Shown here one piece after another: positions 27,973 to 36,359 of a DNA stretch of 64,000 bases. This DNA is from Escherichia coli (GTDB lineage: Bacteria > Pseudomonadota > Gammaproteobacteria > Enterobacterales > Enterobacteriaceae). How positions within the stretch are numbered: the stretch's first letter is position 1; the number at the start of each line of letters is the position of its first letter. The notes under the pieces were generated by a model. The model saw only the letters and a program-made list of their open reading frames with translations, made no database searches and was not told the DNA's origin. The stretch is from NCBI RefSeq assembly GCF_003334355.1, contig NZ_QOWP01000009.1. One strand, 5' to 3'. Both the position numbers and the translations under genes were made by a program.

Positions 27973-28815
<843 letters not shown>

Positions 28816-28831
28816 TTCCAGGGATTTATAA

Positions 28832-29590
28832 ATGAAACAAACACAACGTCACAACGGTATTATCGAACTGGTTAAACAGCAGGGTTATGTCAGTACCGAA
28901 GAGCTGGTAGAGCATTTCTCCGTCAGCCCGCAGACTATTCGCCGCGACCTCAATGAGCTGGCGGAGCAAAACCTGATCCTGCGCCATCATGGCGGTGCGG
29001 CGCTGCCTTCCAGTTCGGTTAACACGCCGTGGCACGATCGCAAGGCCACCCAGACCGAAGAAAAAGAGCGCATCGCCCGCAAAGTGGCGGAGCAAATCCC
29101 CAATGGCTCGACGCTGTTTATCGATATCGGCACCACGCCGGAAGCGGTAGCGCACGCACTGCTCAATCACAGCAATTTGCGCATTGTCACCAACAATCTC
29201 AACGTTGCTAACACGTTGATGGTAAAAGAAGATTTTCGCATCATTCTCGCCGGTGGCGAATTACGCAGCCGCGATGGCGGGATCATTGGCGAAGCGACGC
29301 TCGATTTTATCTCCCAGTTCCGCCTTGATTTCGGCATTCTGGGGATAAGCGGCATCGATAGCGACGGCTCGCTGCTGGAGTTCGATTACCACGAAGTTCG
29401 CACCAAACGCGCCATTATTGAGAACTCGCGCCACGTTATGCTGGTTGTCGATCACTCGAAATTTGGCCGTAACGCGATGGTCAATATGGGCAGCATCAGC
29501 ATGGTAGATGCCGTCTACACCGACGCCCAGCCGCCAGTAAGCGTGATGCAGGTGCTGACGGACCACCATATTCAACTGGAGCTGTGCTGA
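28832..29590 (+). CDS. glpR: glycerol-3-phosphate regulon repressor (DeoR family, 252 aa)
   Basis: ORF track; DeoR-type HTH; synteny. Confidence 0.97.
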   Translation: MKQTQRHNGIIELVKQQGYVSTEELVEHFSVSPQTIRRDLNELAEQNLILRHHGGAALPSSSVNTPWHDRKATQTEEKERIARKVAEQIPNGSTLFIDIGTTPEAVAHALLNHSNLRIVTNNLNVANTLMVKEDFRIILAGGELRSRDGGIIGEATLDFISQFRLDFGILGISGIDSDGSLLEFDYHEVRTKRAIIENSRHVMLVVDHSKFGRNAMVNMGSISMVDAVYTDAQPPVSVMQVLTDHHIQLELC

Positions 29591-31170
29591 TCCTGCAATG
29601 CTTCCCAGGTCAGACCAAAACGCGCCAGGTATTTGCGTAGCCGATCCGCGTCATTGACGCTGGCTTTGCCCTGGCGCGAAACATCAAAAAGCTGTCGTCC
29701 GGCAGCAGAAAGCGACTTTGCCTGGCGGCAGATAGCGATAACGTGTTCCAGTTGCATACGGTCGAAGAGATCGATGTTTTCTGCCTCTGCGCCCAGCAGT
29801 TGCGTAAGCGCGGAGGGACGGCTCTCCTGCCAGTTATAGCGCAGACGGTTTATCTCATCTTCAACCACGTCCAGAGTGATGCGTCCGCTAGTGGCAAAGG
29901 TTGCCATCCGCGTGACGCTGGCAGAAAGCTCGCGAAAGTTACCGCGCCATGTCGCCTGAGGAGATGTTGCAAAGGCCAGCCAGGCACGCCGCGCTTCGGT
30001 GTTAAAACGCACGCTGTCGCCGGTGAGTGAGGCGTGGCGCTCCACTTCATAATCCAGGTTAGGTTCAATATCTTCCTGGCGCTGGCGTAGCCCCGGCAGG
30101 GTGAAGGTCCAGAGATTGATCCGCGCGTACAGATCTTCGCGGAATTTGCCTTCGGCAACCAGCTGGCGCAAATCGCGCACCGTTCCGGCGATAAGCTGAA
30201 AATCACTGCTCACCTGGCGATCGCTGCCAAACGGGTAAAAGGTTTTCTCTTCAATGGCTTTTAGCAGCATTGCTTGTTCGTCTGCGCCCAGTTCGCCAAT
30301 CTCATCAAGAAACAACATTCCGCCGTTGGCGCTGCGTAATAAACCTTCACGAGATTCCCGCGCCCCGGTAAACGCGCCTTTTACATGACCAAACAGCGTC
30401 GACATGGCGGTATCGCCGCGCAGGGTGGCGCAGTTCACTTCCACAAACGCGCCGCTAAACTGACGCCGCGCCTGTTTTAACTCGAAGATGCGTCGCGCCA
30501 GAAATGACTTGCCCGCGCCGGTTGGACCGTTAAGCAGAATCGGCGCGCGGGATTTGATCGCCACTTTTTCGATCTGCTCAATCATGCGGTTGAAGTGGGG
30601 GTTACGCGTGGCAATGCCGGACTTAAGAAAATCAAGCGTTTGCTGGCGTTCCTCGGCAAAGCGGCTGGCGATGGCGTTATAACGGCTTAAATCGAGATCG
30701 ATAATCGTCACTTCACCTGCGCCGCGCGGCTGTTCTTTTTTGCGCGGAGGTGAAGATTGTATCAGCCGGGCGGGCAGGTAACGCGCTTCCGCCAGCAGAA
30801 ACCAGCAAATCTGCGCGACGTGGGTGCCGGTGGTAATGTGAATTAAATAGTCTTCTTTTTCTGGCTGAAACTCGTAACCACGGGCGAAATCATGCAGGCA
30901 AGCGTAAACCTCTTCGAAATCCCACGGGTTATGCAGTTCAATCTCAACGCTCACCACTTCTGTTTCTGGCGAAACGCTGGCGATATCGCGTTTAAGCGTT
31001 TCAAATAGCGAGCGCGAGCGGGCGTCATGCAATAATTCCAGTCGATCGATGACCAACGATTCTTGCTGGCATAAACAGAGTGTCGGAAGCCATTTCGACC
31101 AGCGCTGACTGCCGCGCCCGGCATAATCCAGCACGGTACCGACAAAGCCAAAAGCCACTGTTTTACGCAT
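29572..31170 (-). CDS. rtcR: sigma-54-dependent transcriptional activator of rtcBA (532 aa)
   Basis: ORF track; AAA+ sigma-54 activator motifs ([14 protein letters not shown]); divergent from rtcB; 3' end overlaps glpR by 19 nt. Confidence 0.97.
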
Positions 31171-31304
31171 CTTAGATATCCTTATAAAAGACGATATTTC
31201 ATTATCGGTGAATTGGTTTTGTGGAAAATCTCCGTTTACGGACGTAAAGATTTAACCTATTTAAAAACAATGAATTAAAAAATTAATCTGCTTATTTAAT
31301 TTTC

Positions 31305-31320
31305 TGGCACGACGGTTGCA
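31305..31320 (+). promoter_or_regulatory. sigma-54 (RpoN) promoter of rtcBA: TGGCAC-N5-TTGCA
   Basis: Exact match to the -24 GG / -12 GC consensus about 40 bp upstream of the rtcB start; consistent with adjacent RtcR. Confidence 0.75.
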
Positions 31321-31358
31321 ATTATCACGACAGCAAACAACGAAAAGAGAAAAACAAA

Positions 31359-32585
31359 ATGAATTACGAATTACTGACCACTGAAAATGCCCCGGTAAAA
31401 ATGTGGACCAAAGGCGTGCCGGTAGAAGCCGATGCGCGTCAGCAACTTATTAATACGGCGAAGATGCCGTTTATTTTCAAACACATTGCGGTAATGCCTG
31501 ATGTACACCTGGGTAAAGGTTCCACCATTGGTAGCGTGATCCCGACCAAAGGGGCGATTATTCCGGCGGCGGTGGGCGTGGATATTGGCTGTGGAATGAA
31601 CGCGCTGCGTACCGCGTTAACGGCGGCAGACCTGCCTGAAAACCTGGCAGAGCTGCGTCAGGCGATTGAAACGGCCGTGCCGCACGGGCGTACCACTGGC
31701 CGTTGTAAACGTGATAAAGGCGCATGGGAAAACCCGCCTGTTAACGTCGATGCGAAATGGGCTGAGCTTGAAGCCGGTTATCAGTGGTTAACGCAAAAAT
31801 ATCCCCGTTTCCTGAATACCAATAACTATAAACACCTGGGAACGCTGGGAACCGGTAACCACTTTATTGAAATCTGCCTTGATGAGTCGGAGCAGGTGTG
31901 GATTATGCTGCACTCCGGTTCACGCGGAATTGGTAACGCCATCGGGACTTACTTTATCGATCTGGCACAAAAAGAGATGCAGGAAACGCTTGAGACGTTG
32001 CCGTCGCGTGATCTGGCGTACTTTATGGAAAGTACGGAATACTTTGATGATTACCTGAAAGCCGTGGCCTGGGCGCAGCTTTTTGCCAGCCTTAACCGCG
32101 ATGCGATGATGGAAAACGTGGTAACGGCATTGCAGAGCATTACGCAGAAAACGGTCAGACAGCCACAAACGCTGGCGATGGAAGAGATCAACTGTCACCA
32201 CAACTATGTGCAAAAAGAACAGCACTTTGGTGAAGAGATCTACGTGACGCGTAAAGGCGCGGTGTCTGCGCGTGCTGGTCAATATGGAATTATTCCCGGT
32301 TCGATGGGAGCGAAAAGCTTTATCGTCCGTGGGTTGGGAAATGAAGAGTCGTTCTGTTCGTGCAGCCACGGTGCCGGGCGGGTAATGAGCCGTACTAAAG
32401 CGAAAAAACTGTTCAGCGTGGAAGATCAAATTCGTGCCACCGCGCATGTGGAATGCCGTAAAGATGCCGAAGTGATCGACGAAATCCCGATGGCGTATAA
32501 AGATATTGATGCGGTGATGGCGGCACAAAGCGATCTGGTGGAAGTTATCTACACCCTGCGTCAGGTGGTGTGCGTAAAAGGATAA
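31359..32585 (+). CDS. rtcB: RNA-splicing ligase RtcB (408 aa)
   Basis: ORF track; MNYELLTTENAPVKMWTKGVPVEADARQQL... Confidence 0.98.
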   Translation: MNYELLTTENAPVKMWTKGVPVEADARQQLINTAKMPFIFKHIAVMPDVHLGKGSTIGSVIPTKGAIIPAAVGVDIGCGMNALRTALTAADLPENLAELRQAIETAVPHGRTTGRCKRDKGAWENPPVNVDAKWAELEAGYQWLTQKYPRFLNTNNYKHLGTLGTGNHFIEICLDESEQVWIMLHSGSRGIGNAIGTYFIDLAQKEMQETLETLPSRDLAYFMESTEYFDDYLKAVAWAQLFASLNRDAMMENVVTALQSITQKTVRQPQTLAMEEINCHHNYVQKEQHFGEEIYVTRKGAVSARAGQYGIIPGSMGAKSFIVRGLGNEESFCSCSHGAGRVMSRTKAKKLFSVEDQIRATAHVECRKDAEVIDEIPMAYKDIDAVMAAQSDLVEVIYTLRQVVCVKG

Positions 32586-33605
<1,020 letters not shown>

Positions 33606-33618
33606 TGCAGAGATGTAA

Positions 33619-33642
33619 GCCGGATCTGGCGCGTTATCCGGC
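33619..33642. terminator. REP-like hairpin (GCCGGATCTGGCGCGTTATCCGGC) between convergent rtcA and malT; probable bidirectional terminator
   Basis: Inverted repeat read from the sequence; approximate coordinates. Confidence 0.45.
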
Positions 33643-33647
33643 TAAAC

Positions 33648-36359
<2,712 letters not shown>

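Follow-up and report, generated by a model that had tools for sequence, protein, structure and literature searches.

The divergent rtcR/rtcBA control region of Escherichia coli: a known sigma-54 promoter and a predicted RtcR enhancer

The 188 bp that separate the divergent genes rtcR and rtcB on this stretch of E. coli chromosome (31171–31358 of the window, the whole 64 kb that was analysed; ORF list and profile matches) are, with a probability of roughly 0.95, the native control region of the RNA-repair operon rtcBA, a switch worked by sigma-54 and RtcR. The rtcBA promoter itself is already known and published; it is a textbook sigma-54 promoter and there is nothing new in it. What is new is confined to predicted coordinates for the RtcR enhancer, which is likely to lie at 31182–31207 rather than in the AT-rich sequence adjoining the promoter, and for an IHF box at 31265–31285.

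The rtc locus and its gene products

Along the window the locus reads glpG (27985–28815, + strand), glpR (28832–29590, +), rtcR (29572–31170, −), rtcB (31359–32585, +), rtcA (+) and malT (33648–36353, −). The open reading frame of rtcA runs from 32586 to 33605, with the RefSeq start one codon later at 32589, and rtcB and rtcA form the promoter-driven operon (31359–33605, +). The products of the locus genes are all far above the curated NCBIfam cut-offs; rtcB was assigned from its ORF and NCBIfam, and rtcR, which encodes the sigma-54 enhancer-binding activator, from its ORF, NCBIfam, Pfam and sequence motifs. The convergent genes glpR and rtcR share 19 nt at their 3′ ends (29572–29590).

RtcR matches the NCBIfam equivalog NF038308 over its full length with a score of 847.7 bits (cut-off 650). 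Pfam places the CARF-type RtcR domain (PF06956) at the N-terminus (residues 2–185), followed by Sigma54_activat (187–354) and an AAA lid (362–442). The Walker A motif GPTGAGKS is found at residue 215 and GAFTGA at residue 265; the gene beside the promoter thus encodes a cognate AAA+ activator that has the GAFTGA loop. No Pfam helix-turn-helix matches the C-terminus (residues 443–532, window 29572–29840), and the DNA-binding domain has therefore been taken from the general architecture of bEBPs: it is presumed to be the C-terminal ~90 residues, within which a helix-turn-helix-like stretch seems to hold an insertion.

A 351-nt query over the region (window 31100–31450) has matches in 4857 of 5426 complete E. 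coli genomes at megablast sensitivity. At least 80% of the query is covered in 4840 genomes, where the RefSeq flanking genes are rtcR and rtcB. The other 569 genomes have no match to the rtcR/rtcB junction at this sensitivity, so about one strain in ten lacks the locus or its control region or has it in disrupted form. In E. coli AMSCJX03 an IS1B element (4057–4820 of its locus, approximately window 31150–31900) has replaced the intergenic control DNA together with the 5′ portion of rtcB; rtcR and rtcA are retained, and the annotation gives rtcB as a pseudogene truncated at its N-terminus. The rtcB of Escherichia albertii NBRC 107761 is broken into ORFs of 262 and 143 aa and is probably a pseudogene; the promoter and the dyad described below are intact there. 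A search of 28000–35000 against Rfam (E ≤ 1) found no known RNA element in the control region.

The sigma-54 promoter and the start of transcription

The sequence TGGCACGACGGTTGCA (31305–31320, + strand) matches TGGCAC-N5-TTGCA, and it is the single exact match in the 64 kb with both strands searched. Taken alone the match is only mildly improbable: the chance expectation is 0.11 exact matches per window, at least one is present in 11 of 100 dinucleotide shuffles, and matches with up to two mismatches are about as frequent as chance predicts (24 against an expected 26.7). The motif is convincing because of its context, as it is intergenic, is aimed at rtcB, belongs to a fuller consensus and adjoins the gene of a sigma-54 activator. 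Its last base is 38 nt ahead of the rtcB ATG on the same strand. The match widens to the fuller consensus CTGGCACG-N4-TTGCAA, and CTGGCACGACGGTTGCA (31304–31320) matches YTGGCACG-N4-TTGCW perfectly. Within the complete core CTGGCACGACGGTTGCAA (31304–31321, +) the GG of the −24 element (31306–31307) and the GC of the −12 element (31318–31319) are correctly spaced. Nine enteric lineages all have TGGCAC and TTGCA without change (the flanking spacer has a majority fraction of ~0.58), the core is unchanged in four further E. coli alleles with identity down to 94.6%, and it is also present in distant taxa at the same distance from rtcR. The GC content of the DNA upstream (31171–31304) is 0.26, compared with 0.515 over the whole window.

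The original paper on the rtcBA promoter is reportedly that of Genschik et al. in 1998. Table 1 of Bonocora et al. (2015; PMC4591121) lists CTGGCACGACGGTTGCA, upstream of MG1655 rtcB, as sigma-54 ChIP-seq site OS35, with a ‘Distance’ of 28 to rtcB and the flag ‘C’ in the EcoCyc column; we read the flag as marking one of the experimentally confirmed EcoCyc promoters that the paper says were recovered. The promoter has been described as dependent on both RtcR and sigma-54 (PMC5175333; PMC9650030). The promoter sequence, its conservation, its occupancy by sigma-54 in vivo and its dependence on RtcR are established, either by the present analysis or by the papers cited, for this identical sequence. 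K-12 rtcBp has the same core, the same 188-bp gap and flanking genes, and the same distance of 28 nt to rtcB. MG1655 and the window differ at 11 single intergenic bases, none of which falls in the core or the candidate enhancer; among them is position −3, where the window has C and MG1655 has G.

A sequence-only reading of this DNA had proposed a sigma-54 promoter at 31305–31320 beside the sigma-54 activator gene rtcR. The position is exact, and the motif is both the sole exact match in the window and identical to a published ChIP-seq site; the identity of rtcR is confirmed by the NF038308 score, Sigma54_activat and GAFTGA. The limits given for the region (31171–31358) are exactly those of the intergenic DNA, the sequence upstream of the promoter is indeed AT-rich, and the comparison with published promoter work that it recommended returns the identical 17-mer as OS35, with RtcR and sigma-54 dependence already described.

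If C31319 of the GC element is taken as −12, +1 falls at C31331 (+ strand), following A31330, and we infer that this is the start site of rtcBA. The step A31330–C31331 fits the dinucleotide ApC (−1/+1) used by Kotta-Loizou et al. (PMC9650030) to prime transcription from the native promoter, and MG1655 has no other AC in this stretch. The resulting 28-nt leader (31331–31358, +) equals the ‘Distance’ of 28 in PMC4591121, and contains a conserved AACGRAA block (31339–31345) and a Shine–Dalgarno-like AGAGA (31346–31350). A 15-nt direct repeat, AAAAACAATGAATTA / AAACAAAATGAATTA, is present at 31263–31277 and 31352–31366. The first copy, 89 nt before the second and ahead of the sigma-54 promoter, reproduces the rtcB ribosome site and the start context ATGAATTA, reading there ATG-AAT-TAA. 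The repeat is Escherichia-specific and overlaps the IHF-like box.

A candidate RtcR enhancer and an IHF-like box

For phylogenetic footprinting, rtcR loci were gathered from species-representative genomes and from contigs encoding RtcR homologues. The alignment of nine enteric lineages contains four conserved islands amid diverged DNA: the enhancer candidate [31182–31207, majority fraction 0.88–0.90, the highest of the non-coding islands], the IHF-like box [31265–31285, 0.75], the −24/−12 core [31304–31321, 0.89] and the rtcB leader [31338–31358, 0.81]. The spacers between them (31208–31264 and 31286–31303) have majority fractions of 0.58–0.59.

The candidate RtcR enhancer (UAS) consists of TTATA-N6-GATAT (31182–31197), which overlaps CGATA-N6-TATCG (31192–31207). 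The latter is a perfect inverted repeat, of which the window has no second exact copy. The centres of the two elements would be ~141.5 and ~131.5 bp upstream of the start site proposed above; the centre of CGATA-N6-TATCG is ~107 bp from the GG, within the roughly 80–200 bp upstream of −24/−12 that is typical of bEBPs. None of the intergenic substitutions of MG1655 falls in the element. The RtcR-dependent reporter of PMC5175333 was made from 175 nt upstream of rtcB, a fragment that begins at window 31184 and has the dyad inside it. In E. coli ST95-32 the left arm of the dyad has a T>G change (CGAGA, equivalent to window 31195); the enteric lineage P0028 has the same variant, therefore this position of the dyad tolerates change.

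In nine rtcR loci of non-enteric beta- and gamma-proteobacteria the dyad TTATC-N6-GATAA is matched at 9–10 of 10 positions, 4–10 nt from the rtcR start codon. Counting both dyads, 18 RtcR loci match one or the other at 9–10 of 10 positions. A scan of metagenome contigs with CTGGCACGBNNGTTGCAA, aimed at further enteric rtc promoters, gave 120 environmental loci, none of which encodes RtcR; useless for footprinting, they were used as the negative control. The best matches in 115 sigma-54 promoters that share this core and are unlinked to RtcR score no higher than 7/10 for TTATC-N6-GATAA and 8/10 for CGATA-N6-TATCG, and GATA/TATC occurs there on average 0.45 times per 80 nt, compared with 2–5 times in RtcR loci. 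In 14 loci, 41 GATA/TATC are found in the 60 nt beside rtcR and five in the longer distal part. Shuffled sequences have a mean of 10 (sd 3) and a count of 41 was not attained in any of 2000, a statistic that, like those on phasing, overstates independence because the loci are phylogenetically related. The distances from dyad to GG cluster at ~116, 128–129 and 137–141 bp. The dyad and IHF-box distances step by about one helical turn (R = 0.65–0.78). Given the relatedness of the lineages and a test picked once the data had been seen, this pattern is no more than suggestive. The half-sites of the enteric GATA-N6-TATC and the non-enteric TTATC-N6-GATAA are oppositely oriented, therefore one binding mode does not explain both dyads.

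In a 2016 review the entry for the RtcR enhancer sequence is ‘NK’ (PMC4987338), and no binding-site sequence, footprint or structure for RtcR was found in the accessible literature. The in vitro transcription of PMC9650030 used the rtc UAS and ‘the rtc IHF binding site’, and its supplements name a UAS/nifH hybrid plasmid without giving the sequence. The enhancer may be a helically phased array of TTATC/GATAA half-sites that covers the leader and ribosome-binding-site DNA of rtcR, with CGATA-N6-TATCG as its core in E. coli and TTATC-N6-GATAA in the beta- and gamma-proteobacteria, and active RtcR bound there would probably autoregulate its own gene; for this fuller description the odds appear to us about even.

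A second possibility is that 31182–31207 is a signal for the expression of rtcR (a sigma-70 −10-like or a leader/ribosome-binding element) or the operator of another regulator. The element is 12–37 bp from the rtcR start codon, and on the rtcR strand its palindrome reads CGATAATGAAATATCG, in which GATAAT matches TATAAT at five of six positions. A likely Shine–Dalgarno sequence, AAGGA (31179–31183, −), is 8 nt ahead of the ATG, the rtcR leader (31171–31181) is itself conserved (majority fraction 0.85), and the array abuts or overlaps this Shine–Dalgarno region, an overlap that could be the source of part of its conservation. In Chitinimonas, where no sigma-54 promoter diverges from rtcR, a weaker array (8/10) is present upstream of the gene, and there a role in the control of rtcR itself fits at least as well as activation of rtcBA. 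Binding of another regulator, AtoC, to this intergenic region in vivo has been reported (PMC3118216); the 20-mer CGGAGATTTCCCGCAAAGCC (minus strand), AtoC-bound by ChIP in K-12, corresponds to window 31215–31234. It is part of a block (31215–31242) that, among the nine enteric lineages aligned, is conserved solely within Escherichia and that contains a small palindrome, TCCGTTTACGGA, at 31231–31242. However, no conserved −35 element accompanies the GATAAT of the dyad. A sigma-70 consensus scan of 31000–31500 found no promoter, and so none for rtcR. The clean TTATC-N6-GATAA dyad of the beta- and gamma-proteobacteria is typical of a dimeric DNA-binding protein and not of a promoter, the distance from the element to −24 is kept in steps of a helical turn, and no DNA-binding protein other than RtcR accompanies the locus in these taxa. 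We therefore regard an exclusive role in rtcR expression, or in binding another regulator, as unlikely. The two roles are moreover compatible, since an enhancer that covers the leader could also autoregulate rtcR.

Between the enhancer candidate and the promoter (31207 and 31304) is the IHF-like box (31265–31285, +), centred at ~−52 to −60. It consists of two overlapping one-mismatch matches to WATCAANNNNTTR, namely AAACAATGAATTA (31265–31277, +) and AATTAAAAAATTA (31273–31285, +). There are 79 such one-mismatch matches in the window, so the E. coli box is weak on its own. The aligned columns hold a perfect IHF consensus in four enteric lineages (Salmonella, Superficieibacter and two others), and a perfect consensus is also found between rtcR and the promoter in five non-enteric loci. 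These perfect sites are 25.5–26.5 bp (enterics) or 36.5–37.5 bp (others) from the GG. The AT-rich DNA that adjoins the promoter looks like an IHF or bending segment and not like an activator site.

This bears on where RtcR binds. The sequence-only reading had expected RtcR sites within 31180–31300; the range does contain a conserved inverted repeat, the candidate at 31182–31207, whereas the AT-rich, promoter-proximal DNA resembles an IHF or bending segment. If the sites were instead in the AT-rich stretch just upstream of the promoter, with 31182–31207 being something else, they would be represented by the inverted repeats AATTAAAAAA/TTATTTAATT (I3, 31273–31301, 90% complementary) and AAAATTAA/TTAATTTT (I7, 31279–31303, 100% complementary), which fall in the suggested range. 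Both are low-complexity A/T and are not conserved outside Escherichia (31286–31303, majority fraction 0.59), and were taken as chance or low-complexity repeats. Their centres are only ~40–45 bp from the start, in the zone expected for polymerase or IHF and not at looping distance, and the columns of the relatives aligned to them hold IHF consensus sites, which makes this placement improbable. A further inverted repeat, I1 (31195–31218 / 31254–31277, 71% complementary), is likewise non-conserved and was also put down to chance or low complexity.

That TGGCAC-N5-TTGCA is a chance match and rtcBA is driven by another promoter would accord with the shuffled windows that contain the motif, the very weak activity of the native promoter in vitro and the RtcR-independent rtcBA expression noted in Salmonella (PMC9650030), but it is hardly credible given a core that is invariant in nine enteric lineages and keeps its distance from rtcR in distant taxa, and a sigma-54 ChIP-seq occupancy of the identical sequence (PMC4591121) that is joined by reporter and RNA-seq evidence.

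Proposed mechanism, relatives and significance

In the mechanism that we propose, sigma-54 RNA polymerase rests as a closed complex on CTGGCACG-N4-TTGCAA (31304–31321), unable to open the DNA alone. RtcR is the product of the divergent gene, and a damage signal would relieve its CARF domain. It would then oligomerise on the enhancer ~130–140 bp upstream, which we place at the TTATA/GATAT/TATCG half-site array (31182–31207). The AT-rich spacer with its IHF-like box (31265–31285) would allow IHF or an intrinsic bend to bring the ATPase of RtcR to the polymerase, and ATP hydrolysis would open the promoter, with transcription beginning at about C31331 and giving the 28-nt leader ahead of rtcB. By covering the leader DNA of rtcR, bound RtcR may in addition lower the transcription of its own gene.

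The orthologous locus of Salmonella Typhimurium, rsr-yrlBA-rtcBA (STM3521), has the core TGGCACGCTGGTTGCAAT and a divergent rtcR, and is sigma-54-bound and RtcR-dependent; the orthologue was bound by sigma-54 in ChIP-chip and active in a reporter (PMC3844500). Enteric loci that carry rsr have the enhancer candidate, the IHF box and the leader in common with E. coli. Unlike E. coli, in which rtcB is the first gene, these relatives have rsr (Ro60) first and then YrlA Y-RNA genes. In Intestinirhabdus and Superficieibacter the promoter is followed by rsr, two or three YrlA Y-RNA genes and then rtcB; rsr is also the first gene in the Enterobacter, Phytobacter and P0028 loci, where the flank examined ends inside rsr. 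The rtcB ATG of E. coli shares its alignment column with the rsr ATG and has the same leader, and Klebsiella oxytoca has a 12-codon rsr-like remnant (MANLLQFRSAVM*) and ~130 extra nt ahead of rtcB. The shared column and the remnant suggest that rsr-yrl was deleted in the E. coli and K. oxytoca lineages. Downstream of the sigma-54 promoter the rtc loci of Pseudomonas (2137–2209 of the locus, −) and Accumulibacter (1784–1851 of the locus, −) have an Rfam tRNA-like element, preceded by a GC-rich segment common to both; it is possibly a Y-RNA-like or tRNA-like component of the operon.

In pspF/pspA and xylR/Ps the activator gene is also divergent and the upstream activating site overlaps the promoter or leader of the activator gene. 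An IHF site is located between the enhancer and the sigma-54 promoter in both systems, and negative autoregulation results. The layout proposed for the rtcR region is similar; here the binding of RtcR to the dyad and the autoregulation of rtcR are predictions, the latter from the position of the candidate enhancer over the rtcR leader DNA.

The value of these assignments is modest and of specialist interest, as they predict precise coordinates for the start site, the IHF box and the dyad of the enhancer. Tolerance to antibiotics that target the ribosome is affected by the Rtc system. Current quantitative models of Rtc, including a recent one (PMC12606134), assume that rtcR is expressed constitutively and have no defined RtcR site. 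If the prediction is true, the overlap between enhancer and rtcR leader would add a feedback loop that is absent from these models.
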